NCBI GenBank assembly: GCA_963770895.1
Contig: CAVYRF010000002.1
Location: forward strand, 4,704,001 to 4,768,000
Length of the DNA stretch: 64,000 bases
DNA from: an uncultured Acidobacteriota bacterium
GTDB taxonomy: Bacteria > Acidobacteriota > Thermoanaerobaculia > Multivoradales > UBA5704
Direction: 5' to 3'
In this document: piece by piece, positions 31,796 through 47,856 of the stretch
How positions within the stretch are numbered: position 1 is the first letter of the stretch
Layout: each line of letters begins with the position of its first letter
Notes under the pieces: generated by a model
The model's input: the letters and a program-made list of their open reading frames with translations, nothing else
What the model was told of the DNA's origin: nothing
Database searches by the model: none
Made by a program: the position numbers and the translations under genes

Positions 31796-32164
31796 GTGGC
31801 CGAGGGGGCCGGCAAAGAAGCTCCATGGTCCAGCCGCTGCTGGTCAAGACCATGCCTCTGGCAGGACATTCTCTTCCGCACGTTGTGCGCCCGCGGCAGC
31901 GCGGGCGCCTGGCGCACCTATCGGCAGCACGCAAAGGTTTCCGCCCAGTATCGCGACCTGGCCATCGGCCGCACCCCGCCGCCGGCCGGCGTCAACATCG
32001 CCACGGTGTGCACCGAGCCGCCTTACGTGGCCTCCCTGACGATGGATCGCGCGGTGCTCATCAAGGCCTCGGCGGCTTTCGGCCGGCGCACGCTCGCGGC
32101 CCTCGGCGCCACCTGGGTTGATTGGAACCTCGGCCCGGCCAGCGCGGCCCGCCTGGTAACCTGA
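31796..32164 (+). pseudogene. Possible gene fragment or hypothetical ORF at the island's left edge
   Basis: Coding-like GC3 bias over roughly 31860-32164 but no convincing start or RBS. Confidence 0.3.
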
Positions 32165-32280
32165 GCCGGGTGCGAACCGGTAGAATTGGGGGCGCCAGCG
32201 GTTTACGGGAGGAGTGCGATGCAGGCGAGCCAGCCGGAGGGCGGCGAAGAGCTTGAACGCGGGAAGCGTGGAGCTGGGAC

Positions 32281-33066
32281 GTGGTCGAGCATCGCGCCCA
32301 GCTGGGAGCGGTCGAGTGCATCGTCGAGGAGATGCTGGGTGACCAGGCTCTGCGCCGCTTCGCCGCCATGCGCGACGCGGTGCCGCTGCTGCTGCACGGC
32401 ATCGGTCTGTCTCTGGGCAGCAGCGAGGGGCTCGACCCGGTGCGCCTGCGGCAGGTCGAGCGCGCGGTCCAGGCGCTGCGCCCGCCCTGGTTCTCCGAGC
32501 ACATCGCCTGGACGCGGGCCGGCGGCGTCGACGTCGGCCACTTGACGCCCCTGCCCTTCACCCACGAAGCGGTCCAGACCGTCGCGCGCAACGTGGAGAC
32601 CCTGCAGCGCGCCCTTCCCGGCGTACCGTTGCTGCTGGAAAACATCGCCTACACCCTGCCCTTGCCGGGCTCGCAGATGACCGAACCCGAATTTGTCCGC
32701 GCCGTGGTCGAAGCCGCCGGCACCGGGCTGCTGCTCGACCTGGAGAACGTGCACGCCAACACCCTCAATCACGGCGGCGACGCGCTCGACGCCATCGCGG
32801 CGCTCCCCCTGGAGCGGGTGGTCGAAGTCCACCTGGCCGGTGGTCTCTGGCAGGAAGGGGAGTACGCCGACACCCACACCCGCCCGGTGCCCGAGGAGTC
32901 CTGGGCGCTGCTCGAATGGCTGGTGCCGCGAGCCCCCAACCTGGCGGCAGTGATCATCGAGCGCGACGACGATCTGCCGCCCTTCGCCGACCTGCTCGCC
33001 GAGGTGCGGCGAGCGCAGGGCATTCTCGATGCAGCTCGCCGACCTGCAACGCCAGCTGGCCGCTAG
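32281..33066 (+). CDS. DUF692 / MNIO (MbnB/TglH-like) multinuclear non-heme iron enzyme; N-terminus possibly frameshifted
   Basis: LHGIGLSLGS, FSEHIAW, LLLENI, LLLDLENV, EVHLAGG, DTH and IERDD iron-ligand motifs. Confidence 0.85.
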   Translation: MVEHRAQLGAVECIVEEMLGDQALRRFAAMRDAVPLLLHGIGLSLGSSEGLDPVRLRQVERAVQALRPPWFSEHIAWTRAGGVDVGHLTPLPFTHEAVQTVARNVETLQRALPGVPLLLENIAYTLPLPGSQMTEPEFVRAVVEAAGTGLLLDLENVHANTLNHGGDALDAIAALPLERVVEVHLAGGLWQEGEYADTHTRPVPEESWALLEWLVPRAPNLAAVIIERDDDLPPFADLLAEVRRAQGILDAARRPATPAGR

Positions 33067-33547
33067 CCTCACCGGCCGCAGCGGCCGCAGCGCCCCGCCG
33101 GCCGGTTGCGCCGCCACCGCCATCGCACGCGCCCGCCGCGCCCTCGCCGCCAAGCGCCGCCGCGCCGTCCGCCACCTGTTGCCGCGCACCGCGGCAGCCC
33201 TGGCGGGCCGCTGGGAGGCCTGCTGGGGTCCCCACTGCGACCGCTACACGCCCAGCGGCATGCTCTATCACGTGGACGATGCGTGGGAGCTCGCGGCGCA
33301 CCTGGCAGCAAGCCGGCCGCGAGCGCGAGAGCGCGGCGCCGTCGCCATCTCCCCAGAGGTCCGCAGCGCCGCCCACGACGACCTGGTGAGCCTGCGGCTC
33401 CGCTACAGCCGCAGGCGCAGGGTTGGAGGCCTGCGCATCCGCGAACGCCGCGGTGTTGTCGTCGCCTGGATCTCAACCCCGCGCCACACCCTGGTGATAC
33501 GGCTGCCCGGCCGCCGGGGGCTGCTGTGGCAATGGCGAGTGGGGTAG
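33029..33547 (+). CDS. Putative DUF692 partner protein
   Basis: Overlaps DUF692; LADLQRQLAASL...ALAAKRRRAV...LLP resembles MNIO-associated partner domains. Confidence 0.55.
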   Translation: MQLADLQRQLAASLTGRSGRSAPPAGCAATAIARARRALAAKRRRAVRHLLPRTAAALAGRWEACWGPHCDRYTPSGMLYHVDDAWELAAHLAASRPRARERGAVAISPEVRSAAHDDLVSLRLRYSRRRRVGGLRIRERRGVVVAWISTPRHTLVIRLPGRRGLLWQWRVG

Positions 33548-33627
33548 TAGGCGCGGGCAAGGTTCTGGCCGGGAATCAAGAGGCAGTTGGGTGGGGAGTA
33601 AGGAGGAGGAGCAACCTGGCGCGGATT

Positions 33628-33801
33628 TGTTCGCAGGGCAGGATATTGCCCGAGCGCACACCGCGGGCTCAGGGATTGGCGAGTGCGCAGTCGAGTGGGC
33701 AATGTGTTCAGGTGGGGCAGAGGAGCTGGAGTTGGCGAGGTTGGCCGGATTGAGAAGCGCACGGGGGCCGCGGTGCGCGCGAGGCAAAGTTACCGAAGGA
33801 G
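33628..33801 (+). repeat. Double-hairpin repeat, copy R1
   Basis: TGTTCGCAGGG...GAGCGCACACCGCGGGCTCAGGGATTGGCGAGTGCGC...GAAGCGCACGGGGGCCGCGGTGCGCGCGAGGCAAA...CGAAGGAG. Confidence 0.9.
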
Positions 33802-33876
33802 ATTGGGCGGGCAGACCCAAAGGAGCGAGGTGCCGGCCGACGCGGTTCCGCGCTGAGCCTGCGCTGCGAGTATTCT

Positions 33877-34116
33877 ATGTTCGATGATGCCAAGCCCAAG
33901 GCGCCCCTGGATTGCTGGCGGCTATGGAGAGAACGGCAACAACGTGCCGGTAGCGATCTCGATTCTTACCGCGCCAAGCTGGCAATCGAAACTCACCTGT
34001 CGCGGATCGCCCAGCATCGCCCTCTAGACTCGATTGTCGAGCCAGAATTGCGAGCTGCGGCTGCAGGCCTCCGCAAGTGGTTTTCCCAAGAGTTCTTTGA
34101 TGGCCTCATGGATTGA
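33877..34116 (+). pseudogene. Short ORF, probably the 3' remnant of a larger gene
   Basis: No RBS, lies just after R1 and overlaps the next ORF as in a two-gene module. Confidence 0.35.
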
Positions 34117-34405
34117 TGGTTCCCTCTGCCCGGACGTTGTTGTGCCTGCGTCTATCGACTCGCTGGCGGATCGGGTGGATTTCATCGTCCGCCTCTGCGG
34201 CGCCTGGGACTTCGGTGTGCTCCCAGGCCGCGCGACCCTCTCCGAAATCTGCCGGCCCGACTGGAGGGCGGCCATCGACGCGGCGCGCCTTCTCACCTCT
34301 CCCAGCTATCACCTGGTTCGCCGCTGGCACGGACTGGAACCTCAAACCTATTGTGGCCAGCAGCTTGCCTACATCCGCGACGATCCCAGCTTGAATTTCG
34401 TCTGA
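34100..34405 (+). CDS. Hypothetical protein
   Basis: MASWIDGSLCPD...AWDFG...DDPSLNFV; protein-like composition, coupled to the upstream ORF. Confidence 0.5.
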   Translation: MASWIDGSLCPDVVVPASIDSLADRVDFIVRLCGAWDFGVLPGRATLSEICRPDWRAAIDAARLLTSPSYHLVRRWHGLEPQTYCGQQLAYIRDDPSLNFV

Positions 34406-34597
34406 CATGACCTTGCCATCCTGGCGCCTTGAGCGCCAGTGGGCGCCTGAAAAAATCTGCTCGGCGACGAGATCACGTAGGGCTCGCGGGCGCGCGCGTG
34501 GACTGCGCTAGCGTTTCGGGGGCCTTTGCCGCCTTGCCGCTCTTCCTCGCGGTAGGTCCTTGCCCTTCGACTCTCAATCCACTAGCTTGGATCATTG

Positions 34598-34626
34598 TTG
34601 ACAAGAAAAGTTGTCAAGGGTACCAT
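34598..34626 (+). promoter_or_regulatory. Promoter TTGACA-N17-TACCAT with inverted-repeat operator TTGACAA-N6-TTGTCAA
   Basis: Near-consensus boxes; the -10 ends 6 nt before the GTG at 34633, suggesting a leaderless mRNA. Confidence 0.7.
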
Positions 34627-34632
34627 CGCCTT

Positions 34633-35235
34633 GTGCTCGACATCCAGGTCATCGATGATCCGGGCGTGGCGATGGTGGCCATGGAGCCGATGCGGAGTCG
34701 ACTGCTTTCCGAGCTGGCTGCGCCCGCCTCGGCGGCGACGTTGGCCGCGCGGGTTGGCTTGGCTCGGCAAAAAGTCAACTACCACCTGCACGCCCTGGAG
34801 GCGCAGGGGCTGGTGCGGCTGGCCCAGGAACGCAAGTGGGGCGGGCTGACGGAGCGGCTGCTCGTGGCGACGGCCGCGTCCTACGTCATTTCGCCGAGCG
34901 CCCTGGGTCCGGTCGCAGCGGATCCGAATCGGGAAATCGACAGGCTGTCCGCCAGCTATCTCATCGCCTTGGGCGCACGGGTCGTTCGCGAGGTGGGCGA
35001 TCTCGTTCGTCGTGCGCAAGACGCGGGCAAGCGCCTGGCGACCCTGGCGGTGGATACCGAGGTTCGCTTCCGGTCTGCGACGGACCGGGCGGCTTTCAGC
35101 AACGAACTCGCCGAGGCCATCACGAAATTGGTTGCGAAGTACCACGATGAAACCACCCCCGGCGGCCGCGCGCATCGCCTGGTGGTCGTGGCGCACCCCC
35201 TGCCGCAGAGAGCTGACCCCAAGGAGCCATCATGA
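34633..35235 (+). CDS. ArsR-like HTH transcriptional regulator
   Basis: EPMRSRLLSEL..PASAATLAARVGLARQKVNYHL wHTH. Confidence 0.85.
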   Translation: MLDIQVIDDPGVAMVAMEPMRSRLLSELAAPASAATLAARVGLARQKVNYHLHALEAQGLVRLAQERKWGGLTERLLVATAASYVISPSALGPVAADPNREIDRLSASYLIALGARVVREVGDLVRRAQDAGKRLATLAVDTEVRFRSATDRAAFSNELAEAITKLVAKYHDETTPGGRAHRLVVVAHPLPQRADPKEPS

Positions 35236-36056
35236 GCGTGAAGAAAGAAGCTTCCGGACGCCGTTCCGTCCAGGTCGAAGTCGAGGTCCCCGGCACGCCG
35301 GAGGAAGTCTGGCAGGCCATCGCCACCGGGCCGGGTATTTCGTCCTGGTTCGTGCCGACTGAGTTCGAGGAGCTCGACGGCAAGCCCGTAGCGGTGAAGT
35401 TGAGCTTCGGTCCGGGCATGGAGTCCCGTTCTGCCGTGACGGCCTGGGATCCGCCGCGGATGTTTGCCGCCGAGGCCGATGGCTGGGCTCCTGGCTCGCC
35501 GCCCATCGCGGACGAGTGGAGCGTCGAAGCGCGCGGGGGAGGCATCTGCGTCGTCCGCGTGGTGCATAGCCTCTTCGCCAGCACGGACGACTGGGACAAC
35601 CAGCTGGAAGGCACCGAATCCGGCTGGCCTGGCTTCTTCCGCATCCTGCGGATCTATCTCACGCACTTCCGCGGCCAACGCTCCGCGATGATGCAGTGGA
35701 TCGCCCCCGCCACGGGAACCGAAGCCGAGGCATGGGAAACGCTGACCGCGGCATTGGGGCTGAACGGCGTGAGCGCTGGGCAGAGTTGGGCCGCCCCGGC
35801 GAGCGTCCCTGCGCTCGGCGGCGTGGTGGAACACGTCAGCCAGAGTCCGTGCAATGCCCTGCTGCGGCTCGACAAGCCGGGGCCGGGCGCCGCCGCCCTT
35901 GGCGCTGTCAACTACGGCGGCGCAATCATGGTCACGCTGAGCTTCTACCTCTACGGCGATCAGGCGGCCGGGACCGCCGCCCGCGAGACACCGGTGTGGC
36001 AAGCGTGGATTCAAGAACGCTTTCCGGTGCCGTCGGAGACGAACAACAGTGAATGA
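35232..36056 (+). CDS. SRPBCC/AHSA1 domain protein
   Basis: EVPGTPEEVWQAIATGPGISSWF, TAWDPP and GW..F motifs; ATGA coupling. Confidence 0.85.
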   Translation: MSVKKEASGRRSVQVEVEVPGTPEEVWQAIATGPGISSWFVPTEFEELDGKPVAVKLSFGPGMESRSAVTAWDPPRMFAAEADGWAPGSPPIADEWSVEARGGGICVVRVVHSLFASTDDWDNQLEGTESGWPGFFRILRIYLTHFRGQRSAMMQWIAPATGTEAEAWETLTAALGLNGVSAGQSWAAPASVPALGGVVEHVSQSPCNALLRLDKPGPGAAALGAVNYGGAIMVTLSFYLYGDQAAGTAARETPVWQAWIQERFPVPSETNNSE

Positions 36057-36391
36057 TCGCGTGGTCATGGGAGCACACTCCCGTCGTTGCGCGTGATTGT
36101 CGAGCAACGCAAACGGTCGATCCCCGGCCAGTTGAGGGCCGGATGCCGTGGCGATGTCCGCAAGCGTGTGGCCCGCGTCGAGCGCCATCGATGTAAGACG
36201 CTCAGCCCGCCTCGGCACTATCGATTTCTCTGATACAGGCCACTTTATAGCTGCGTCATGCGGTGGTGTCCTGGACAGGACACCACCGCGCGGCACTGTG
36301 CCGCGTCGCGCCACGCCACGCCTTGACTTAAAATTGCAAGGCGGTATATACGTCGTTGCTGCAAACTGGCTGTGCTGCGAGGCCGAAACCT

Positions 36392-37789
36392 ATGTACCCT
36401 ATCTTTGCGACCGCTTGGGCCTTGGCCGTCCTTTTTCACCTGGCGACGCCGCACGGGGCCGAAAGGAACGCGGTCTCCGCGCTGCTGCTGGTCGCGGCGC
36501 TGGTCACGATCCTTTTCCCGGGCAACAGCTTGGCGCTGGTGACGCTGGCAGTGTGCCAGATCGCGCAGTTCTGGGAACGGCTCCCCATGCGAGCTCAGAC
36601 CAGCGAGTACTTCAAGTTCATTTGCGGTCTCTGCCTCATCGCCACGTACGTTCCCCAGGCATCGGCGCAGGGGACGGCGTCGATTGCGACCGACCTTTGG
36701 TTCGCGTCCTTCGCGCCGTTGTTGAGGCTGGCGACGAGCCTGCTGTTTTTTGCCTCGGTCCTGCACAAGCTCAATGCCGGTTTCTTCAGCTCCGAGCGCA
36801 GCCACGCCGGGAAGATCGTCGGGCCTCTCATATCCGCTCTCGGATTGCCAAGCCCCAGATGGTTGCGCGCGATGCTGCCCTACGCGACCGTGCTTGGCGA
36901 ATTCTTCATCGCGGCGGGCCTGCTCTTTCCGGCGACACGGGCAGCGGCCGTATGGACGTTGCTGCTGATGTTCTTTGCCGTCGGCCTGCGTGGGGTCGTC
37001 CAGTTTGCCTGGCTGATGTATGCCGTGGGGCTCCTGTTCTGCGACGATCGGGTGGCCGCTCGCGCCATGCCTTATGTGGCGACAACCTTCTCGGTTCGTC
37101 ACGTGCTCTTTGCGCTTGCCTGCTGCTTCTTTTTTCCCGCGGCCATCCTGCTGCGGCGGCGCGCGACCGCATTGCTGCTCCTGGTCAGTACCGTCGTGAT
37201 GGCTCTTGCCTTGTTTGCCTGGTCGGCGGCGGCCGTCACCGGTGCTCCCGCTCCCATGATATGGACAGGAGCAAGCTTGCCGCTGTCCACGGCTCAAATC
37301 GCCCTGCTGGTGCTCTTTTCGCTCAACGAGCTGGGGCCTTATGTTGGCTACAAGGACTGGCCGACCTTTCGCATGTACAGCAATCTCGAAAGCGGATTTA
37401 CCATCAATCACCTATTCCTGAGGGCTTGGCTTTTTACGCCATTTTTCAAGCGGCGGCAGGAGGTCCTGCTGTCGCCGTCCACCGTGAAGCGCATCCCCTA
37501 CCAGCGCTTCAGAGCCGGCGGCGACCTTTATCTGCCGTATAGCTCCCTGGCGGTGCTGGTCCGAGAGTTTGGCAAGGCGGGAGGGCCCCCCATGCCCATC
37601 CAATCTCCCGACCCGGGCAGCAGCGCCGCGACGGCCGCGGCGACCGCGGCGATTTCGACGACCGCGGCGCCCGGGGAGAATGCCGAGCGGACAGCAAGCT
37701 CGTGGTTGGATCTGCTCATGCCGCCGCGCTTCTTCTTCCACTATCCGTGCTCGCGGCCGCCACAAGCTCCGGAGCTCAAATCGCCCTAG
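36392..37789 (+). CDS. Polytopic membrane protein (HTTM-like)
   Basis: Many TM segments; FASVLHKLN and PYVG...FRMYSNL. Confidence 0.6.
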   Translation: MYPIFATAWALAVLFHLATPHGAERNAVSALLLVAALVTILFPGNSLALVTLAVCQIAQFWERLPMRAQTSEYFKFICGLCLIATYVPQASAQGTASIATDLWFASFAPLLRLATSLLFFASVLHKLNAGFFSSERSHAGKIVGPLISALGLPSPRWLRAMLPYATVLGEFFIAAGLLFPATRAAAVWTLLLMFFAVGLRGVVQFAWLMYAVGLLFCDDRVAARAMPYVATTFSVRHVLFALACCFFFPAAILLRRRATALLLLVSTVVMALALFAWSAAAVTGAPAPMIWTGASLPLSTAQIALLVLFSLNELGPYVGYKDWPTFRMYSNLESGFTINHLFLRAWLFTPFFKRRQEVLLSPSTVKRIPYQRFRAGGDLYLPYSSLAVLVREFGKAGGPPMPIQSPDPGSSAATAAATAAISTTAAPGENAERTASSWLDLLMPPRFFFHYPCSRPPQAPELKSP

Positions 37790-37904
37790 CCAGGGCGTCC
37801 TCTCGATATCGGCTCGGTCGTCACCTGCGCCGGCGCGGTTCCCTTCGGTAGCGCCTGGGGTGGGGGTAGCTGCCCCCGGCCAGGCCCGTCAGGTAGGGGC
37901 GAGC

Positions 37905-38076
37905 ATTTCGAAGGGCTGGCGGTTGCCCGAGCGCGCACCGCGGGCTCAGGGTGTGGCGAGTGCGCGGTCGCGTGGGCAAGGATTAAGGTAAGGCAGGGAG
38001 AGGGAGTGGGCGTTTTCGGTCGGGGTGAGAAGCGCACGGGGGCCGCGGTGCGCGCGAGGCAAAGAAATCGAAGGAG
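37905..38076 (+). repeat. Double-hairpin repeat, copy R2
   Basis: Same left and right arms as R1 with a divergent centre. Confidence 0.9.
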
Positions 38077-38100
38077 ATACTCGTATGCTGGAGGTTCCCT

Positions 38101-38319
38101 ATGAAGAACATCACCTTGAGCGCCGACGAAGACCTGATCGAAGCCGCACGCGCCCGTGCGCGGGCCGAGCACACCACGCTGAATGAGCAGTTCCGCCGCT
38201 GGCTGGGCGAATACACCCAGCGCCAGAAGCAAGCGGACGCAGCCTTGGCAGTGATCGACGAGTTGCGCGGCAAGCTGCGCACCGGGGGGCGCCGCTTCAC
38301 TCGTGGGGAAGATGAATGA
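38101..38319 (+). CDS. Antitoxin (RHH/VapB-like)
   Basis: MKNITLSADEDLIEAAR...TLNEQFRRWL...RRFTR; RBS GGAGG; coupled to a PIN gene. Confidence 0.75.
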   Translation: MKNITLSADEDLIEAARARARAEHTTLNEQFRRWLGEYTQRQKQADAALAVIDELRGKLRTGGRRFTRGEDE

Positions 38320-38408
38320 ACGCTGATTTTCTCGACACCAACATCTTCGTCTATCTGTTGGACGAGACCGACGAACGCCGCCGCGAGATCGCGCGGCGCC
38401 TGGTCCAC
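38316..38408 (+). pseudogene. Truncated PIN-domain (VapC) toxin
   Basis: FLDTNIFVYL...RRREIARRLV, then homology stops at a 45-bp repeat. Confidence 0.7.
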
Positions 38409-38453
38409 GCGGCCGCGCAGCGGGCCGGGAAGGCGACGGTCGGACAGGTGGCG
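38409..38453 (+). repeat. 45-bp direct repeat B, copy 1
   Basis: GCGGCCGCGCAGCGGGCCGGGAAGGCGACGGTCGGACAGGTGGCG; 43/45 identical to 41792-41836. Confidence 0.8.
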
Positions 38454-38969
38454 TCAGGGTTTAAGGCTGTAGGCCGCGGCCATCGCGCCGGCGCCAGCCT
38501 GGTACTTGCGGGCGCGGGCCAGTTCGGCGATCTGGCGGATGTGGCCGAGGTCGTGGAGCGCCCATTCATTCAACATCTGCGACATGGTGATCTCGCCATA
38601 CTCCTTATGCACGGCGAGGCGATCGCCGGCACCGGCGGGGAGGTTGCGGAGGAAGTCGATGTTGTGCTCGCGCTGCTCCTCGAAGTGATCGATGGCATCC
38701 TCGGGGTCGGCATCGCGATAGAGGTCGAGGTACATCTGAGCGTCGTCGGGCTCGAACTGGGGACGGGTTTCCGCCATGAAACGATCGAGGCGCATGCGGT
38801 AGCAGTCGCCTTCGGAGTGCGACAGGTGGGCCAGCACCTCGGCGACGGAGAAGCGTTCGGGCGCCGGCTTCCAGCGGGCGTCCGCATCGGTCAGCTCCGT
38901 CATCAGGGCGCGGAGAATTCGAGGCGTGGCCTCCAGCAGGTCCAGGCAGGGCAGTCCGTTTTCCGTCAT
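38454..38969 (-). CDS. DinB family protein
   Basis: WKPAPERFSVAEVLAHL and WALHDLGHIRQI. Confidence 0.85.
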   Translation of the reverse strand: MTENGLPCLDLLEATPRILRALMTELTDADARWKPAPERFSVAEVLAHLSHSEGDCYRMRLDRFMAETRPQFEPDDAQMYLDLYRDADPEDAIDHFEEQREHNIDFLRNLPAGAGDRLAVHKEYGEITMSQMLNEWALHDLGHIRQIAELARARKYQAGAGAMAAAYSLKP

Positions 38970-39083
38970 GGGTTTATCCTACGACGTTGTCGCCGCCATC
39001 GACATGGCGGGTGTTGCCTGCCGGAGAGGCGATGAGTAGCCTGGGCGAGCCGGACCGCAACGGGGCCGGCTCGCCGATTGTGG

Positions 39084-39332
39084 CTAACAGACCGGCGAAG
39101 AGTGGTGCAGGACGTAGGCCGATTGGGTGCCGTAGCACTCGCAGTCGCCGCAGTCGTTCTGGCACGAGCCCACGACGGTGGTGTAGGTGTCGTCCGAGTA
39201 GTACACCCAGGTGTCCAGCTCGGTGTCGCGCGGATTGCAGTAGAAGGTCGCATGCGCCAGGGGCGGGGCTGTCGCCAGAGCTGCCAGGGTCAGTACGGCG
39301 ATCAGGCAGACAAAACGTCTTGCGGTCGTCAT
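39084..39332 (-). CDS. Small secreted Cys-rich protein (DUF6289-like)
   Basis: Signal peptide, then YYSDDTYTTVVG and six Cys; RBS AAGGA. Confidence 0.65.
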   Translation of the reverse strand: MTTARRFVCLIAVLTLAALATAPPLAHATFYCNPRDTELDTWVYYSDDTYTTVVGSCQNDCGDCECYGTQSAYVLHHSSPVC

Positions 39333-39925
39333 GGCCATTCCTTTCGGGGTTGAAGCCGGATGTCGCACCTTGCGGCCGGCGGTCAGTAGCAGATCTGGGC
39401 TGGGTTGCCCCAGCCGATGGACTTTCCAATCTCACCTTAGTTTAGTGCCTGCCATACATCAGCAGCAACACGCGGGAGAGCCCGGCGCTTCGCGGTGCGC
39501 CGCGAGGGTTTTCTTGAAAATCCGCGGATCGCCGCGCCGGTCTTTGCCGCGCCGGAGGTTCCCGCGACTCAGCAAGCTCGCCGCCACCGGCGGGCAAGGG
39601 TCCGCCGCGCCTGCCGGCGGTGCGGAGGTCTGTCCGATGGCACGCCTTCCGAGCTTCCAGCCCGCGCCGCAACCTGCGCAGGTGGTTTGTGCGGACCCCG
39701 CAGCGATGCGGCGTACGCCGGCCAGGCTGAGTTCTTCGTCTGTGGCTCGGGACTGCGCTGCCTGGCGCAAGGCACGTGCAGGGCCACCTCCAGGACGCGG
39801 TGCAGGTGCCTCATCATCCAGGCCCCGCACCGGGTGTGCCCCGCGCTGGCGCTGGCGTAAGGGGTCGCTTGGGGCGTGTCCGGGGCCGTGGCAGGTGACA
39901 GCGCCGAGCGGGCCGGCGGGGTGTC

Positions 39926-40097
39926 TGTTCGCAGGGCTGGCTGTTGAGCGAGCGCGCACCGCGGGCTCAGGGTTTGGCGAGTGCGCGGTTGCGTGGGCAA
40001 GGGTGCTGGTGGGGCAGGCGGACGGCTCTGGCGCGATGGGCCGGGGGGAGGAGCGCACGGGGGCCGTGGTGCGCGCGAGGCACAAGAATCGAAGGCG
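39926..40097 (+). repeat. Double-hairpin repeat, copy R3
   Basis: Conserved arms; near-identical to R4 over 39911-40122. Confidence 0.9.
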
Positions 40098-40130
40098 AGC
40101 GGGCGGGCGAGACGACGCGGGCGACGGCTT

Positions 40131-41585
40131 TTACGCGTACTCGAAAAGCGCCATGAAACCGAAGTCCATGTGCAGCTGCTGGTGGCAGTGGAAGAGGGTG
40201 CGGCCGGGATTGTCGGCGACGAAGTCGAAGGAGAGCTCCTGGAACCCACCCAGCATCACGACATCTTTGATGACGCCGGCGGTCGCCTTGCCGCCGATGT
40301 TGGTCAGCTCGAAGCTGTGCCGGTGTAGGTGCAGCGGGTGGATGTCGTCGCTTGCGTTGCGGACATTCACCCGGTAGCGGCGTCCCTGATGGATCGTGTA
40401 CGTGGGTTGCAAGGGGTCCATCGAGAAGGGTTTGCCATTGAGCGTCCAGACATTGAAGCCGTGTGCGGCGGCGTTGTGTTTGACGATCGTGATGTCGATC
40501 GTCTCGTCGGGCGTTGCCGTGGATGGACCGAGCTTGCCAAAGCGGGTATAGGCCCAATGGAAAGGCTTGGGTTTGATCCAGTGCGGCTTGCCGCCGCGGC
40601 CAGCGTATTCGACGACGGTCCCCATGCCATGACGGCGGTCGTCGTCGGCGAGATCGCCCATGACCCAGACGCCCGGGTGATTCATCTCGACGATCGCGGA
40701 GATGCGCTCGGCCGTGCCCAGCCATAGCACCGGCACCTCGGCTGGTGTCGGCACCGGGTTGCCGTCGAGCGCCACCACGCGGAAGACGTGCCCGGGCAAC
40801 GCGAGGCTGCGAATCTCCGTCGCGCTCGCGTTGAGCACGTGGAACAGCACCCGCTCTCCTTGCTTGACGCGGATCGGCTGGCCATGCCCGAGCATGACTC
40901 CATTGATGCTGAACAGCTCGTAGCCGACCTCGAATCCCTTGGGCGTAGCCTTGGAAGCCGCGTCGGCGGCGTTTCCGATCTGCTTGAGCTCGGCGAGCGG
41001 ATTGCCGGCAAGGCAATCCATCGCCATGTCGCCGCCGCGGCTGAAGGCCGGCGCGAACTCCTTCATCACCAGGAAGATCTCCCGATCGTAGGCGCCGGGA
41101 TCGCTGGCGGGCTCGATGTAGACCGGACCGGCCTGGCCGGTGTAGGTGCCGCGGTTGAGGTCGCTCCCGGCGATGACGTGCGTGTGATAAAAGCGGAAGC
41201 CCGCCGGCTTCGGCACCCAGGCAATCCGCCGCCGGCCGTGCGCGGGAACGAAGGGCGAACCTTCCTCGGCTGCGCCGTCGACGTCGGTCGGGATCTTCTG
41301 GCCGTGCCAATGGACCAACTCCGGCGTGTCCGTGTCGTTGAGGATGTCGACCACCACCCGCCGGCCTTCGTGCAAACGGAGGAGCGGTCCCGGGAACTGG
41401 CCGTTGTAGAGCGTCGTGGACACGATATGGTCCGGCGCGACCTCGACCAGCCCGGTAGCGATGCGCAACGTGTAGTCGGCCTGCTCATCGGTGGCTGCGT
41501 CGACAGCTCGTGCAAAGCGCGGCAAGGCGCCAAGGAGCGGCACCAGCCCGGCAAGCTTGAGCAGCGAACGGCGATCGATCGTCAT
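40131..41585 (-). CDS. Tat-exported multicopper oxidase
   Basis: DRRSLLK Tat motif; HWHG, YHTH, HPLHLHRH and HCHQQLHM copper sites. Confidence 0.92.
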   Translation of the reverse strand: MTIDRRSLLKLAGLVPLLGALPRFARAVDAATDEQADYTLRIATGLVEVAPDHIVSTTLYNGQFPGPLLRLHEGRRVVVDILNDTDTPELVHWHGQKIPTDVDGAAEEGSPFVPAHGRRRIAWVPKPAGFRFYHTHVIAGSDLNRGTYTGQAGPVYIEPASDPGAYDREIFLVMKEFAPAFSRGGDMAMDCLAGNPLAELKQIGNAADAASKATPKGFEVGYELFSINGVMLGHGQPIRVKQGERVLFHVLNASATEIRSLALPGHVFRVVALDGNPVPTPAEVPVLWLGTAERISAIVEMNHPGVWVMGDLADDDRRHGMGTVVEYAGRGGKPHWIKPKPFHWAYTRFGKLGPSTATPDETIDITIVKHNAAAHGFNVWTLNGKPFSMDPLQPTYTIHQGRRYRVNVRNASDDIHPLHLHRHSFELTNIGGKATAGVIKDVVMLGGFQELSFDFVADNPGRTLFHCHQQLHMDFGFMALFEYA

Positions 41586-41791
41586 GGTCGATTTCCTCAC
41601 CGAGGTGTGGCGCCTGGGGAACCCTGGACGCCTGCTGAGCCCTCCGTATGCACCCGCGTGACCGGAGGAGGCGGGGCGGTTCTACAATGCTGTGGATCGC
41701 CTGCGGCGCCGAGGGTGGTAGCGACCCCGCCGCCGCTTCCTTTGAGCACCAACGTGGCAATGATACCGCTCCCATGAGCAGTGGCTCGCCA

Positions 41792-41836
41792 GCGGCCGGG
41801 CAGCGGGCCGGGAAGGCGACGCTCGGACAGGTGGCG
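41792..41836 (+). repeat. 45-bp direct repeat B, copy 2
   Basis: 43/45 identical to 38409-38453. Confidence 0.8.
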
Positions 41837-42148
41837 GGGACCGCCGGCGGCGTGCCGCGTGCCGTCTGGTTGGAGCCGGGTGCACACTGCACATCCGCTG
41901 ATCCGGCGCTGCGCCGGAGATGGTTGGAGTGTAGTGTGCGGAGCCGAGAGGGCTTGCCTTCCCGGCCCCGGTTGTGGGTGCCAGGGATCGTTGCCGAGTG
42001 AGGATCTACTACAATACCGCTAGCGCGTCCGCCTGCGGAGGCGAAGAAGGAGACGTGCCTGGTTGCGGCACCTCCGATGTCCAAGCTGACCGCCTGCGGC
42101 GGCGGCTTGGCTTGAGCGCGATGGGCCACCGCCAAGAGGTCGGGCGAC

Positions 42149-42658
42149 ATGTCTGGGATAAAACATCATCGATGGAGCTTTGCGTTCCGCCGGCCTCGAG
42201 CTGCGAGTTGGTGCTGGCGCTGCTGCTTGGCGCTGGCGCTGCTTGAGGCGGGTTGTGTCGTCCATTGGCATCCGCCGCCCCAGGGGGCAGGCGGCGCTTG
42301 GGACCCGGCTGCTCACCCCGAGCTGCCCGCAGTTGAGGTGGTGGCGAGCGGGCAGGTGGTGCGGTCTTACAGGACGATCGGTACCGTGCATGCCCTCGGA
42401 TCGATGGGGGAGCAGGAGGCCTTGATCGTGCTGAGGCAGGAGGCGCAGGCGCTGCGCGGCGACGCCCTGCTCAACGTCCACAGGCGTGGCTTGACCGCCA
42501 CGACCCTCGACGCGTCCACCAGTCTGGCCGAGCAACTGTGGGAGGCTACCGTGATCGTGTGGACGGATCCTCCCGCAGAAGCCGTGGCGCCGGAAGCGCC
42601 GAGTGCGCCGCCGATTCCGCATCGTGGCGAGTGGCGACTTGGAGCCGGGCGGCTGTAG
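42149..42658 (+). CDS. Hypothetical exported protein or lipoprotein
   Basis: LALALLEAGC lipobox-like segment; RSYRTIGTV...LRQEAQALRGDALL resembles YbjQ-like folds; start uncertain. Confidence 0.45.
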   Translation: MSGIKHHRWSFAFRRPRAASWCWRCCLALALLEAGCVVHWHPPPQGAGGAWDPAAHPELPAVEVVASGQVVRSYRTIGTVHALGSMGEQEALIVLRQEAQALRGDALLNVHRRGLTATTLDASTSLAEQLWEATVIVWTDPPAEAVAPEAPSAPPIPHRGEWRLGAGRL

Positions 42659-42714
42659 AACGCGGGACATCCGCGCCGGCTGCCGGCGCTGCGGGCGCTG
42701 GCCAGCGACCCGTT

Positions 42715-42927
42715 ATGACAATCGGACTCGACGATCGCTATCGTGACGAAAACGGACGGATCCATGCAAAGCGTGGCGATACACTTGTACGGACACTCCG
42801 CGGAATATACGGCTCGAGCTTTGCCGCGGGATTTCCTGCCGATACGACGCTGGACCGATTGCTCGATGGAACCGGTTTCTCATCGCTGAGCCAATATGTG
42901 AAGCATCACGGGCATTCCCAAGGGTAG
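42715..42927 (+). CDS. Small conserved hypothetical protein
   Basis: GLDDRYRDENGRIHAKRGDTLVRTLR..YG..FA.G; protein-like composition. Confidence 0.55.
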   Translation: MTIGLDDRYRDENGRIHAKRGDTLVRTLRGIYGSSFAAGFPADTTLDRLLDGTGFSSLSQYVKHHGHSQG

Positions 42928-42959
42928 CGGCAAGCCCGCGCGCCGCCGCTGCGGCCGGG

Positions 42960-43313
42960 CGGCATCGATCGAGTGCCAGCGCGGTGACCCGCACGGCGGC
43001 TTGCCAGAGCGGCCGGATGAAGGGCTCGCAGCGCGCTTCATGGCGACTGTCGGCGCTTGCCACACCGACGACGTCCCGTCCCAAGCGCGCGGCTTCGTCG
43101 AGAAAGCCGCCCGAGTAACACTGATCGGCGATCAGGATCAATCGCGCGAAGGGGAGCGGCGCCAGAAGGAGGAGGAAGGCGCCAGCCGTGATCAGACCAC
43201 TTTCCAGATTGAGAAAGGGGGGCCGAAGGCGCGCCCGCCATGGCCGGTGAGATAGACGAGCAGCAGGTCTTGTGGCCGTATCTCGCGGCGCAATAGCTCC
43301 ACGGCTTGGTCGA
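42960..43313 (-). pseudogene. Caspase/legumain-like (clan CD) peptidase remnant
   Basis: LLVYLTGHG (His) and LIADQCYSGGF (Cys) lie in different frames, joined by a frameshift in a C-run near 43220; the 5' part is replaced by repeat R4. Confidence 0.65.
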
Positions 43314-43328
43314 GGCCGGCGGGGTGTC

Positions 43329-43500
43329 TGTTCGCAGGGCTGGCTGTTGGGCGAGGGCGCACCGCGGGCTCAGGGTTTGGCGAGTGCGCGGTTGCGTGGG
43401 CAAGGGTGCTGGTGGGGCAGGCGGACGGCTCTGGCGCGATGGGCCGGGGGGAGAAGCGCACGGGGGCCGTGGTGCGCGCGAGGCATAAGAATCGAAGGCG
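43329..43500 (+). repeat. Double-hairpin repeat, copy R4
   Basis: Near-identical to R3 over 43314-43525. Confidence 0.9.
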
Positions 43501-43627
43501 AGTGGGCGGGCGCGCCGACGCGGGCTTGGCCTTTGTGCCACCTGGCGCGGCCGCGGTGTTTCGTCATGGATTGCGACCGCGTTGGCACAGTATTGGTTGC
43601 GGGGCGAACACCCAAGGAGAACACGCC

Positions 43628-43783
43628 ATGAAAAAGCAGATCCGCCACCTGTTGCTCCATCGCGAGACCCTGCAGAACCTGAACGCTGCGAACCTGCCCA
43701 GGGCGGTCGCCGGCGCCGCGACCTCGCCGCCGGTGTGCGAGAACAGCGGCAACGCCATCACCCACTGCACGGGCTGCTGCTAG
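43628..43783 (+). CDS. RiPP-like precursor peptide P1 (51 aa)
   Basis: RBS AAGGAG; MKKQIRHLLLHRETLQNL leader; Ser/Thr/Cys core ending CTGCC. Confidence 0.7.
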   Translation: MKKQIRHLLLHRETLQNLNAANLPRAVAGAATSPPVCENSGNAITHCTGCC

Positions 43784-43977
43784 GTAGCCGCCAGCGATCG
43801 CACCGGGCCGGCTGCGGCCGGCCCCGCCTCGGGCGCTTCAGGTGCGCCGCTGCCGGCGGCAGCGCACCTCGGCGAGGTCTGGGGCACCCGCATCCGGGCC
43901 ACCTATCCGCAGTCGCAGCCCGGGACGTCCGGGAGCCGGGAGCGGCGGCGCCGGGGCCGCAAGCCCGGCGCGGTTTG

Positions 43978-44150
43978 TGTTTGCAGGGCTGGCTGCTACC
44001 CGAGCGCGCACCGCAGGCTCAGGGTTTGGCGAGTGCGCGGTGGAGTCGGCAATATTTCTGGTGGGGCGGATGGATGGAGTTGGGAGCTATCGGCCGGAGT
44101 GCGAAGCGCACGGGGGCCGCGGTGCGCGCGAGGCAAGAGATTCGAAGGAG
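43978..44150 (+). repeat. Double-hairpin repeat, copy R5
   Basis: Conserved arms, ends CGAAGGAG. Confidence 0.9.
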
Positions 44151-44313
44151 CTAGGGGGGCTGGATCTGGCAGGGTCGTTCCCCCGTTCCCCCGTTCCCCG
44201 AAAGGAAGGCAGCGCCGGCAGGCGTTCTCATTCGCCCCTCCGCTGTCTCGCATCCGAGAGGCGTGGGCACCCGACTTGATGGGACGCTACTCGAATCCGG
44301 AAAGGAAAAGCCC

Positions 44314-44460
44314 ATGAGAAAGACCCTGAAGCCCATCCGCTTGCAGCGCGAGACCCTGAAGCATCTGACCGATGGCACGCTCGACAAGGTGCGCGCCGCC
44401 TGGCGCGAGAACACCAACTACATCAGCTGCCCGAATCCGCAGACCTGCCTCGGCTGCTGA
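44314..44460 (+). CDS. RiPP-like precursor peptide P2 (48 aa)
   Basis: RBS AAAGGA; MRKTLKPIRLQRETLKHL leader; core ending SCPNPQTCLGC. Confidence 0.7.
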   Translation: MRKTLKPIRLQRETLKHLTDGTLDKVRAAWRENTNYISCPNPQTCLGC

Positions 44461-44930
44461 GCCCCCTGCCTGCACAAGAAGGCCGATCGCCGGCCCGGCC
44501 GGCCCGCTGAGCGATTGCGGGCAGGCCGCGCAGTCGACGATTTCGGGAGCCAGGAGATCGCCGGCAATCGCCAAGTCCATTTGGCCCTGCTTGCCCAGGA
44601 AGCGTGCGCAAGTGGAGGTAGGCTTCGACGGCCGCCGCGGCCGGTGCAGCGCCACCATGTGACGGAAATGGTCGGGACCGCCGGCGTAGGCCGTGAGTGA
44701 ACATCTGCTGCCTTGATTGCGGTGCGTTCGGCGTTACTGGCGGAATGGCTGAGGGCGGGGGGGCGGGGGCAGTGGTGGGATGTGATGTCGCTGCTGGGAG
44801 GCGGTGCAGGAGGGGATGGGGGGGGAGGTGGCGGCGCTGGCGGCTGCTGGCGTCCGACCAGGGCAACCATGTATAACCTGTACAGGCCGTCGTGGCCTGG
44901 ACCGAGCTGGTAAAGTTGTACGAGCCGCAC

Positions 44931-46136
44931 ATGCAACCAACCACCAGAGCCGACGTGGCACCGCAACTCCTTCGCTGGGCGCGCGAGACCGCCGGTCTCT
45001 CCGCCGAGGAAGCTGCGCGCCAGCTCGGGGTCAAGCCAGACCGCCTGGGCGAATGGGAAGCAGGGCAGCTCAGTCCGACTGTGCCTCAGTTGCGCAAGGC
45101 TGCGGCCATGTACAAGCGGTCTCTGGCGACGTTCTTCCTGGCCGAACCGCCGGCGACGGCGGCGCCCCCCCACGACTTCCGGCGACTTCCCCCGGAGGGA
45201 CGCGGCGAGGCTGCGCTGTCTCCGGCCTTGCTTCTCGCCATTCGCCGAGCGAACCGCCGCCGCCGCATCGCGGTCGAGCTGGCGCGCGAGAACGGCGCTT
45301 CGCCTCAGCCGTTTTCGGTTCGCGGGGAGCCGAGCGACGACGAGGAGCTGGGCGCTCGCCTGCGGTCGTTCCTCGGCGTGGCGCTCGACGACCAGATGAA
45401 GTGGAGAGGAGACTACCAGCCGCTCAACGCCTGGGTCGCGGCACTCGAATCAAGGGACGTCCTGGTGTTTCAGGCAAGCCACATCTCGGTAGGGGAGATG
45501 CGCGGCTTCTCGATCAGCGAGCGCACCTTCCCAGTGATTGTCCTCAATTCCAAGGACTCGCCCCGCGGGCGGGTATTCACCCTGATGCACGAGCTGGTCC
45601 ACCTGGCCCTGAGCGAAGGCGGTGTCTGCGATCCGCTGGAAGCCCGCCGTGGCGCCCACAGCCGGGACGACGAGGTCGAGGTCTTTTGCAGTCGCATCGC
45701 CGGCGCGGTCCTGGTTCCGGCCGAGGCGCTGCTGGCGCCGCCACTGGTGCGCGCCGCCGCGCAGCCGCAGGAATGGGACGACTCGGAGCTGCATCGGCTG
45801 GCGCAGTTTTTCGGGGTCAGCGACGAGGTGATTCTGCGGCGCCTGCTCATCCTGCGGAAGACCACCGAGGCGTTTTATGAGGCCAGGCGCCGCGCCTACC
45901 AGAGAGCCTACACGGCGATGAGGATCGCAGACGCGGCCAAGCCGATACGGATTCCACCGTCCGTGATCGTGGTGCGCAACAATGGGCGCCTTTACACTCG
46001 GTTAGTTCTGGCAGCGCTCGACAGCGACAGGATCACCTTTGCCGACGTTGCCGACTATCTGGGCACAAACCTCAAGCACCTGGACGCGATTGCCGATCTG
46101 GTCGGAGCCGCGCGTCCCGCCGAGGCCATGGTGTGA
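44931..46136 (+). CDS. XRE-family HTH fused to an ImmA/IrrE metallopeptidase
   Basis: LRWARETAGLS..EAA..LG..WEAG HTH; FTLMHELVH (HExxH); FGVS. Confidence 0.9.
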   Translation: MQPTTRADVAPQLLRWARETAGLSAEEAARQLGVKPDRLGEWEAGQLSPTVPQLRKAAAMYKRSLATFFLAEPPATAAPPHDFRRLPPEGRGEAALSPALLLAIRRANRRRRIAVELARENGASPQPFSVRGEPSDDEELGARLRSFLGVALDDQMKWRGDYQPLNAWVAALESRDVLVFQASHISVGEMRGFSISERTFPVIVLNSKDSPRGRVFTLMHELVHLALSEGGVCDPLEARRGAHSRDDEVEVFCSRIAGAVLVPAEALLAPPLVRAAAQPQEWDDSELHRLAQFFGVSDEVILRRLLILRKTTEAFYEARRRAYQRAYTAMRIADAAKPIRIPPSVIVVRNNGRLYTRLVLAALDSDRITFADVADYLGTNLKHLDAIADLVGAARPAEAMV

Positions 46137-46201: not shown

Positions 46202-47407
46202 TCATGGAGATCCGAGGACCGCCGGAGAGGATGATGCGGGACCTGAGGACGACGCAAGATTGACCATTTCTCTGATCGAATCGATGACCTCTCGCAGTAA
46301 CTTCAAGGAGATTGTCAGCTCGTACTCGTAGGCTGCTAAAGCCTCGCCAAGGTTCTTCTTTGGTTGGTCGAGCATGGCAGGCAGGTTCGAGACCGTCATC
46401 CGGTATTCCGCTAGAGTTGGTAGTGCGCTGGCCGTGGCAACCTCAGATTCAGTTAACGCTTGGAGTAGTGAACTGAGATATCCAGCTGCCATCCCGCCTG
46501 CGACCAGTGTGGAAATGATTGCAGCCAATCGTCCGTACGCGAGAGAGCCGTTCGCCCTAGAGAGCCGGAATGTGGGCAGCTCAAAGCGTAGGCGCTCAGC
46601 AAATTCGGTCATACATTTCGACACGCGCTCTACCGAGCGTTTTGTGAACGCCATGGCATCCGCCATGCTTCCAGTGCTTCTAATGGCGTTCAATTGCACT
46701 GTCTCGGCGCTCATCAGCTGCGTCATCTGGCGGATTAGAAGAGTAACCCGCTCTGTCGCCCTCGTACTTCTCTCGGTCTCAGAAGCAGACCACTCGCTGG
46801 TTTCCCGCAGATCTGCGCTCATTCCAGTGGCGCCAGTGGCCGGAATAAGCTTTGCTCCGTCAGACGCATTACGCCAAGCTCTTGCGATCTTTTGCAGAGT
46901 CCTTGATAGATGAAACCGTAGGAGCGATTCGAACTGCTCGGTGTCACTAAACGACCAATCGAGCAAGCCAAGGTTCCTGGTGCCTTCTCGAAAAGACCGA
47001 ACCTTCGCCAGCTGGTCGATGTTCACGTCAAAGGGCAGCGCGGCTTCCTTGAAGTAGAGCATAATTGCTGGCCTACCATCAGGGACTGACCGGTTCTGAT
47101 AGGCTCTTTTGAACTCTTCTTCCGTTCCCGATTCAGCCCGTGGAGTGGGAGTGCCAAATCGCGACCATAAAATTCCGAGAAAAATGTCATGATCGTTCCC
47201 AAGCTGTTCATTAAGAACAGCCTGTGCGTCAGAGCCAGCGGCGGGATAACCATGGGTCTCCCAGCGGATAACCTCGATATTGAAGCCCAGCACTTCAGAC
47301 CATAGCGCATTGAGCTCGATGACTACTCTTGTAGCTACCGCTCGCTCGGCAGTCACATCATTGGGCGAGGACACAAACACGCGGATACGTGGAAATCCTT
47401 CGATCAT
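46202..47407 (-). CDS. DUF4062-like (TIR/NDT-like) domain plus helical C-terminus
   Basis: RVFVSSPNDV..ER, WE, DIFLGILWSRFGTPT...SGTEEEF and IMLYF; visibly lower GC than the flanks. Confidence 0.7.
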   Translation of the reverse strand: MIEGFPRIRVFVSSPNDVTAERAVATRVVIELNALWSEVLGFNIEVIRWETHGYPAAGSDAQAVLNEQLGNDHDIFLGILWSRFGTPTPRAESGTEEEFKRAYQNRSVPDGRPAIMLYFKEAALPFDVNIDQLAKVRSFREGTRNLGLLDWSFSDTEQFESLLRFHLSRTLQKIARAWRNASDGAKLIPATGATGMSADLRETSEWSASETERSTRATERVTLLIRQMTQLMSAETVQLNAIRSTGSMADAMAFTKRSVERVSKCMTEFAERLRFELPTFRLSRANGSLAYGRLAAIISTLVAGGMAAGYLSSLLQALTESEVATASALPTLAEYRMTVSNLPAMLDQPKKNLGEALAAYEYELTISLKLLREVIDSIREMVNLASSSGPASSSPAVLGSP

Positions 47408-47755: not shown

Positions 47756-47784
47756 ACCCAATTAATTGTATTACCCTTAAAGAG

Positions 47785-47856
47785 TATCCCCAACGGGATT
47801 CGAACCCGTGTTGCCGCCTTGAAAGGGCGGAGTCCTAACCACTAGACGATGGGGAC
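47785..47856 (-). tRNA. tRNA-Glu(TTC), CCA not encoded
   Basis: GTCCCCA/TGGGGAT acceptor stem, CCGCC-CTTTCAA-GGCGG anticodon arm, GGTTCGAATCC T-loop; 72 nt. Confidence 0.95.

Follow-up and report, generated by a model that had tools for sequence, protein, structure and literature searches.

Two conserved small genes of an uncultured Acidobacteriota bacterium as putative members of a genome-wide family of class I-type lanthipeptide precursors

We analysed two small genes, P1 and P2, that lie in a 64,000-nucleotide stretch of DNA from an uncultured Acidobacteriota soil bacterium of the class Thermoanaerobaculia (assembly GCA_963770895.1, contig CAVYRF010000002.1, C2:4704001-4768000; hereafter the window). 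Both are real, conserved small genes. The explanation we favour, with a probability of roughly 0.55, is that they encode independently transcribed lanthipeptide-type precursors belonging to a family scattered over the genome, that these are matured in trans by a LanB-LanC pair, and that the hairpin repeat found next to them is a separate matter. A sequence-only reading of the window had regarded P1 and P2 as orphan precursors carried in single-gene cassettes, matured by a trans-acting enzyme and diversified by shuffling at the repeat. The two genes are as follows:

43628-43783, plus strand: P1 precursor gene, 51 amino acids plus stop; leader residues 1-29 with an Ala-Gly end; predicted core AATSPPVCENSGNAITHCTGCC
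44314-44460, plus strand: P2 precursor gene, 48 amino acids plus stop; leader residues 1-29 with an Ala-Ala end; predicted core WRENTNYISCPNPQTCLGC

Positions and translations of the two open reading frames (ORFs) agree exactly with those read from the sequence before (P1 43628-43780 plus stop, P2 44314-44457 plus stop), and the good ribosome-binding sites are present, with AAGGAG 8 nt 5' of the P1 ATG and GAAAGGA 5' of the P2 ATG. The GC content at codon positions 1/2/3 is coding-like in a genome of 70.7% GC, at 0.57/0.51/0.94 for P1 and 0.50/0.48/0.92 for P2. The predicted P1 core contains five Ser/Thr and four Cys, that of P2 three Ser/Thr and three Cys and hence an odd number of cysteines. 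Both cores have the C-terminal C-x-G-C that had been pointed out (P1 ...TGCC, P2 ...LGC), an ending that is not general among members of the leader family. The proposed GA/AA cleavage site stands for P2 (Ala-Ala) but not for P1, where the family alignment places the cut after Ala-Gly (G29).

P2 falls into a 90%-identity cluster of six sequences from several sources, the five other members being 93-96% identical to it; the whole core is unchanged in five of them, and the sixth (46 amino acids) is two residues short at its end. P2 is present at 94% identity in two of nine same-genus genomes (G001 and G003) and on two metagenome loci at 88% and 74% identity. The DNA encoding the P2 core is identical in three species, represented by this genome (G000), G001 and G003, the other common regional genes of which are 73-92% identical. 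For P1 we found 11 homologues (53-92% identity) in which PPVCENSGNA and three Cys are invariant and the middle of the leader is variable. These homologues occur in metagenome proteins only, with no relative of P1 in the genome-contig collection or in 30 related genomes (E ≤ 1e-8). Within the genome itself, P1 has an 88% identical paralogue (C2:3876774-3876926); the codon differences between the two (7 synonymous, 6 non-synonymous) touch the core only once. The locus of this paralogue was considered as a home cluster for P1 and rejected, since it is surrounded by surface-protein, PAP2 and permease genes, with a RamC-like LanKC gene 13 kb off and no clear cluster in sight. In soil metatranscriptomes, short contigs with 4-6 differences cover the P2 coding sequence in four runs of four studies, and about 50 nt of a P1-like core are covered in two runs. 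No cover extends beyond the P2 coding sequence and the 50-nt P1-core stretch, the runs being uninformative on the remainder, and because RNA libraries can hold DNA, this cover is a weak expression hint only.

Beyond the coding sequences, the homology of P1 and P2 to their copies elsewhere is confined to short units:

43561-43826, plus strand: P1 unit, made up of the coding sequence with about 67 nt before and about 45 nt after it; 83% identical to the paralogue, without similarity beyond
44233-44490, plus strand: P2 unit, about 80 nt upstream, the coding sequence and about 30 nt downstream; the sole part common to the P2 loci of G001, G003, L032 and L033

The stretch that P1 has in common with its paralogue amounts to 272 nt (-67 to about +45). 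Around P2, 138-297 nt are alike at 82-95% identity across this genome, G001 (identical to locus L031), G003 and the loci L032 and L033, and the rest differs. The G001-type context places P2 among DUF885, ApbE and DAP-epimerase genes and is free of lan genes within 6 kb. What looked in G003 like a repeat upstream of P2, a match of 99 nt, is the beginning of a divergent paralogue. Since the homology is confined to these units, each self-contained at about 260-270 nt and with flanks that are unrelated elsewhere, the earlier picture of single-gene cassettes holds descriptively. No mechanism that moves the units was found.

Scanning 43200-44700 for sigma-70 promoters returned 0 sites. About 45 nt in front of each of the two start codons (43585-43610 and 44280-44300) stands a GGCAC-N5-T.G element, spaced like the -24/-12 elements of sigma-54 promoters; it is fully conserved before P2 in G001 and G003 and also present before the P1 paralogue, and it is not family-wide. 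A promoter shared by the family was sought and rejected, 6-mer enrichment upstream of the 98 family genes described below yielding the Shine-Dalgarno (SD) sequence only, and a sigma-54-like family promoter was likewise dismissed, with GG[CT]A[CT] at -43 to -58 in about 11 of the 98 against about 7 expected by a rough estimate. Downstream of P1 a consensus scan marks one further feature:

43948-43971, plus strand: hairpin resembling a terminator, with GGTTTGTGTT behind it, at the 5' border of the repeat copy R5 and 165 nt past the P1 stop

The leader places both genes in a larger family. In this family the leader begins with M-K/R-K...LxLx(R/K)ETLxxL and ends in GG, AG, GA or AA. P1 carries the motif as L8-x-L10-x-R12-x5-L18 with the end A28-G29 (R for K), and P2 as I8-x-L10-x-R12-x5-L18 with the end A28-A29 (R for K, I for L). 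According to Walker et al. (PMC7268733), an LxLxKx5L motif, a GG end and a C39 protease go together in class I LanAs of Bacteroidetes; as the sequence-only reading had proposed, the leaders of P1 and P2 are of this class I lanthipeptide type, with motif and GG-type end present in both. A leader hidden Markov model (HMM), built from pattern hits in this genome, finds P1 at E = 1.6e-14 and P2 at E = 6e-12 in the six-frame translation of the genome. Furthermore, of 4473 candidates in a protein collection, 1876 match the profile at E ≤ 0.001; those that bear names are few and come from Thermoanaerobaculia metagenome-assembled genomes, and one homologue bears the NCBI name 'class I lanthipeptide'.

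With ORFs counted at E ≤ 1e-3, the leader HMM identifies 98 small ORFs in the 8.16-Mb genome, distributed across all three replicons, and a separate alignment-based profile search gives 96 members (E ≤ 0.01). The genome search for RETL-leader ORFs that had been suggested on the strength of the window thus found P1 and P2 to be no local pair. Most of the 98 have an ATG start (92), an SD-like site (89) and at least two Cys (93), and the median core contains 4 Cys and 6 Ser/Thr. Similar C-termini are shared by one pair only, P1 and its paralogue, the cores being otherwise almost all different, so that the family displays the conserved leader, hypervariable cores and scattered genes of a prochlorosin-like library (96-98 copies). 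In our comparison set of 31 genomes, made up of the 30 relatives and the present one (at most 150 candidates scored per genome), the family is found in 19, each giving 1 to 96 matches, the relatives having 0-68 copies; it occurs in all nine same-genus genomes and in 15 of 18 same-family genomes. In a phylum-wide sample with at most 45 candidates scored per genome, only 5 of 150 other genomes, including the unpublished G173, have matches (1, 1, 2, 13 and 1), which marks the expansion as characteristic of this taxonomic family and order. The recurrent neighbours of the precursors were inspected as possible hidden maturases and discarded, as they are large paralogous families and giant genes of the size of non-ribosomal peptide synthetases (NRPS) or polyketide synthases (PKS); only one recurrent neighbour family is annotated, a MacB/FtsX permease. 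For 13 of the 98 precursors, giant genes of PKS/NRPS size are found no more than 5 kb away. We also observed a sub-family with a ...KETLLPL... leader and His-rich cores with few or no Cys (C1:1579909-1580058, C2:2709152-2709298, C2:5020190-5020345 and C1:652844-652984), two members of which lie 145-147 bp from stand-alone LanC-like genes.

As noted before from the sequence, no LanB, LanC, LanM or YcaO gene is found in the window (no match to Lant_dehydr_N/C, LANC_like, DUF4135 or YcaO), and the orphan status of P1 and P2 extends much further, the nearest lan-family match being 237 kb away. The sole full LanB of the genome (C2:5180194-5183361, a 1179-aa frame with N and C domains), with an adjoining LanC (C2:5178843-5179988), is about 431 kb from P1 and P2. 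Distance is the rule for the family: 86 of the 98 precursors are more than 20 kb from any LanB, LanC or LanM match, six are within 10 kb, and the median distance is 200 kb. A weaker LanB-like gene and a lone Lant_dehydr_C are the further LanB-type genes. In addition, the genome has 2 LanM, one YcaO, 2 MNIO, 6 GMC_oxred_C and 9 C39 domains, together with 14 LANC_like matches that include about eight stand-alone LanC-like genes and a RamC-like LanKC. The latter, a class III synthetase at C2:3860021-3863092 (L025:21-3089), is an unusual fusion in which RamC_N, Pkinase and LANC_like follow an N-terminal signal-peptidase S26 domain in frame.

Support for a connection between the family and LanB-LanC comes from the relatives. 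All 19 family-holding genomes have Lant_dehydr_N and LANC_like matches, and 8 of the 12 family-free genomes lack a LanB match; the other four (G011, G020, G023 and G028) have one, two of them only weakly. In G002 and G024, each with one peptide, that peptide is encoded directly beside LanC and LanB, and in G019 and G021 several peptides are; those at the loci L026 (in G002) and L028 were confirmed by the leader HMM of this genome. The LanB-LanC loci of this genome (C2:5170001-5190000, L024) and of G002 look syntenic, judged by one near-identical neighbouring protein; the single family precursor of G002 stands at this locus.

In order to rationalise these observations, we propose that the shared leader would dock the translated peptide on the sole full-length LanB dehydratase, which would dehydrate Ser/Thr, and that the neighbouring LanC or a stand-alone LanC paralogue would close thioether rings onto Cys. 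Dehydratases of class I depend on glutamyl-tRNA (PMC9993889). An exporter of the C39-peptidase ABC type would then cut after Ala-Gly in P1 and Ala-Ala in P2 and export the core. The hairpin repeat would be a separate, genome-specific intergenic element outside the precursor system. Judged by their leader and by the association seen in relatives, P1 and P2 would work like class I lanthipeptide precursors, as divergent, orphan members, and the best reading would be that the one complete LanB-LanC pair matures them in trans. Of the trans-matured precursor library postulated earlier, the orphan single-gene library stands, with maturation in trans needed if there is any; its repeat-driven diversification does not.

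Several observations weigh against this explanation. The NCBI model for class I lanthipeptide leaders, NF038153 (lant_leader_L1a), scores P1 at only 13.1 bits (E 0.081, cut-off 22) and does not match P2. Three paralogues in this genome pass that cut-off at 27.5-28.5 bits, one of them being the KETLLPL-type ORF C2:5020190-5020345. Because P1 and P2 fail both this cut-off and adjacency to LanB/LanC, we file them as divergent, orphan precursors of the class I kind. The 20 kb around the genome's own LanB-LanC pair contain no family precursor (best leader E 0.29), and G011 and G023 combine a strong LanB match with no family member. The enzyme co-occurrence is suggestive only, because kin are not independent. 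RETL precursors of this genome also have other enzyme genes in their vicinity, the distance being 3.5 kb for a LanM, 145-319 bp for stand-alone LanC-like genes and about 2 kb for two GMC oxidoreductases. More than one maturase may therefore use the leader. Finally, the complex predicted for LanB residues 1-780 and P1 speaks for the explanation, but its score is weak, at 0.58 against 0.22 for the best control. Of 80 solved complexes 58 attain the mark set for such scores, and of 110 mismatched pairs 2 do so; with a score of 0.60 or less, only 7 of the 80 attain it, along with both mismatched pairs. Contact agreement between the runs was at least 48%, and the partner had a pLDDT of at least 42. 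The structure of a comparable complex (NisB with the nisin leader) is solved, so the predictor may have passed by reproducing a learned structure.

The possible use of one leader by several enzymes leads to an alternative that we consider possible though doubtful, namely that RETL is a 'platform' leader and that P1 and P2 are matured by LanM, LanKC, a stand-alone LanC-like protein or a GMC oxidoreductase forming a thiazole at the C-terminal Gly-Cys, with or without LanB. The proximities just listed speak for it; the GMC genes in question, C2:2151057 and C2:4968566, are two out of six with GMC_oxred_C. According to a 2026 report (PMC13083261), the Thermoanaerobaculia GMC oxidases ThaO and TheO install thiazoles at Gly-Cys of Cys-rich lanthipeptide-type precursors, and TheO is active without a synthetase. 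As both P1 and P2 end in C-x-G-C, such tailoring is a live possibility, although this ending is not shared by the family at large, only the two GMC genes lie near precursors, and the precursors ThaA/TheA are likened to P1 and P2 by the described features of their cores. LanM, moreover, is not found in 5 of the 19 family-holding genomes, including those with 29 and 38 peptides, and is present in 3 of the 12 family-free ones. That P1 and P2 are instead unmodified double-glycine-leader peptides (bacteriocin-like or signalling) with disulfides only and C39 ABC export is very improbable: the GG-type leader end, the nine C39 domains and a weak Bacteriocin_IIc match in a related metagenome peptide (E 0.025, below cut-off) would agree with it, but the family co-occurs with LanB and LanC and adjoins both in four relatives, the cores are rich in Ser/Thr besides Cys (medians 6 and 4), and a peptide with disulfides only sits poorly with the odd Cys number of P2.

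An enzyme pair in the window itself is the least probable source of maturation. An MNIO gene (MbnB/TglH/ChrH, PF05114, 248.7 bits) lies at 32281-33066 on the plus strand, 10.6 kb upstream of P1 and on the same strand as both precursors, and is followed by an overlapping 172-aa ORF (33029-33547, plus strand) that has no Pfam match and may be its partner. The idea that P1 and P2 are substrates of this DUF692-type pair gains from MNIOs acting on Cys-containing precursors, as the Pfam family description has it, and from the lack of any precursor found next to the MNIO gene. It loses from the intervening DNA, which holds four copies of the repeat along with ArsR/SRPBCC and multicopper oxidase genes that are unrelated, from an MNIO N-terminus about 15 profile positions short, and from the distribution of the enzyme: this MNIO type occurs in only 4 of the 30 relatives and is not found in the P2 holders G001 and G003, and MNIOs in general have no match in 4 of the 19 family-holding genomes and a match in 5 of the 12 family-free ones.

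The remaining alternative, which we regard as quite improbable, is that the hairpin repeat serves as a recombination site through which the precursor cassettes move and diversify. Five copies of this repeat form an array in the window:

33612-33803, plus strand: repeat R1, first of the five-copy array
37889-38078, plus strand: repeat R2
39910-40099, plus strand: repeat R3
43313-43502, plus strand: repeat R4, 95% identical to R3
43962-44152, plus strand: repeat R5

R4 and R5 flank P1, and P2 starts 162 nt past R5, just as the sequence-only reading had arranged them; its repeat length of 172 bp has to be revised, the conserved part being about 190-215 nt. The genome contains 25 copies (nhmmer), 17 of them at 140 bits or more, by crude gene calls all intergenic and with inconsistent orientation of the neighbouring genes; on this ground (and with the same crude calls) a role as 5' untranslated region or terminator was rejected. 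Four copies cluster at C1:2027-2043 kb, and a GMC oxidoreductase gene (C1:2043141-2044967, minus strand) is followed, 141 nt downstream, by the copy at C1:2042812-2043000. The repeat is built around a 13-bp GC stem in which GCGCGCACCGCGG pairs with CCGCGGTGCGCGC and about 95 nt are enclosed; one compensatory change in the stem is seen, in three divergent copies. It was also considered as a structured RNA and rejected, with minimum-free-energy z-scores of 0.02, 0.13, 0.38 and -2.33, those of the plus strand (0.02, 0.38) being no better than shuffles. RNAalifold yields the long GC stem only, on both strands, and Rfam gave 0 matches (E ≤ 1) in window positions 32000-46000.

Some evidence speaks for shuffling. 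For three precursors (P1, P2 and C1:1001317-1001484), a same-strand repeat precedes the gene by no more than 300 nt, the expected number of such cases being 0.078 (20000 placements; P(≥3) = 0.0002, or P(≥2) = 0.003 if P1 and P2 are taken as one locus), and the island between the repeats is a mosaic with pieces at five places in G003. Across the genome, however, a repeat stands upstream of only 3 of the 98 precursors and a precursor behind only 3 of the 25 repeats, so that 95 RETL leaders show no association with it and 22 repeats have no precursor behind them. Lack of association was the outcome that the sequence-only reading had itself named as refuting, and the shuffling idea is largely refuted already. 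The repeat is near-private to this genome: 4 of 20 relatives have short matches (37-145 nt, 70-85% identity), none was found in G001 or G003 or in any of four other independent P2 contexts, and the 34-nt repeat core has no exact match in a species-genome collection from which this genome itself was possibly left out. Inspection of both strands of the consensus by eye revealed no boxes of the attC kind, R''(RYYYAAC)...R'(GTTRRRY), no attC model having been run, and no transposase or integrase is linked to the repeat, no integrase search having been made. The likeliest reason for the local link between repeat and precursors is that both lie in one variable island.

This island, at about 34-48 kb of the window, has 56-68% GC, holds the repeats, P1 and P2 and ends at a tRNA gene; the closest DNA relatives of its genes are found at five different places in G003:

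47784-47856, minus strand: tRNA-Glu(UUC), far edge of the lower-GC mosaic island

Two adjacent ORFs at 42713-43461 (minus strand) look like one broken peptidase-C14-type gene ending at the edge of R4; they carry ...LTGHGG... and ...ADQCYSGG..., which we take to be caspase-like motifs, and a 142-aa piece has no Pfam match. Behind P2 follow a gene with a helix-turn-helix and an IrrE/ImmA-type metallopeptidase domain (Peptidase_M78; 44892-46136, plus strand) and a DUF4062 gene (46202-47407, minus strand), at 56-59% GC and next to tRNA-Glu; both are typical island or defence-type cargo. Upstream of the island, very long ORFs at about 15540-29944 (plus strand) with internal repeats typical of carrier-protein/ketosynthase modules suggest a PKS/NRPS cluster.

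Compared with known systems, P1 and P2 have the leader motif, the GG-type end and the Cys/Ser/Thr-rich core in common with the class I L1a precursors of the Bacteroidota type (e.g., the pinensin family), and in relatives of this bacterium family members stand beside LanC/LanB. They differ in scoring below the NCBIfam cut-off and in their distance from LanB/LanC, points already counted against our explanation, as well as in the roughly 98 copies in one genome and in belonging to Acidobacteriota instead of Bacteroidota. The ThaA/TheA systems of Thermoanaerobaculia (LanM plus GMC oxidase), as PMC13083261 describes them, come from the same class and have Cys-rich lanthipeptide-type cores with a Gly-Cys motif; GMC genes stand beside two RETL precursors in this genome, but neither GMC nor LanM is near P1 and P2. 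As for the repeat, it is intergenic, clustered, confined to one genome and stem-based like repetitive extragenic palindromic (REP) elements and bacterial interspersed mosaic elements (BIMEs), miniature inverted-repeat transposable elements (MITEs) and attC arrays, yet it measures about 190-215 nt, shows no terminal inverted repeats or attC boxes and has no Rfam match.

The closest parallel to the family as a whole are the prochlorosins and SyncA peptides of marine cyanobacteria (matured by ProcM and SyncM), likewise with dozens of precursors per genome, a conserved leader, a hypervariable core, genes mostly far from the synthetase and strain-specific repertoires. Those are class II systems with one bifunctional LanM and Nif11 leaders, whereas here the leader is of class I type and LanB plus LanC are best correlated. 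The generalist enzyme is in our case a proposed one, in a genome with one full LanB but also two LanM, LanKC-like genes and about eight stand-alone LanC-like genes. By this analogy the family looks like a class I-type counterpart of the prochlorosin library; no description of a class I library of this kind, or of its expansion, was found in the literature searched. More tentatively, and with odds that we put below even, this lineage of soil Thermoanaerobaculia may maintain up to about 100 precursors per genome as roughly 260-bp units (5' region, coding sequence and terminator) that settle at unrelated intergenic positions and spread from species to species, as the P2 core DNA, identical in three species with unrelated flanks, suggests; they would be served by one generalist LanB and possibly tailored by LanC, LanM or GMC oxidases through the same leader.

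The large one-enzyme lanthipeptide libraries known so far are of class II (ProcM, SyncM) and are used as engineering platforms. Searches of the RODEO type cover seven genes around a LanC, according to PMC7268733, and the scattered precursors described here show why cluster-based genome mining misses most of them in such bacteria. If our explanation is true, about 100 natural substrates per genome would offer a new test bed for the substrate tolerance of LanB and LanC, and the family would represent a large pool of unexplored soil peptides.

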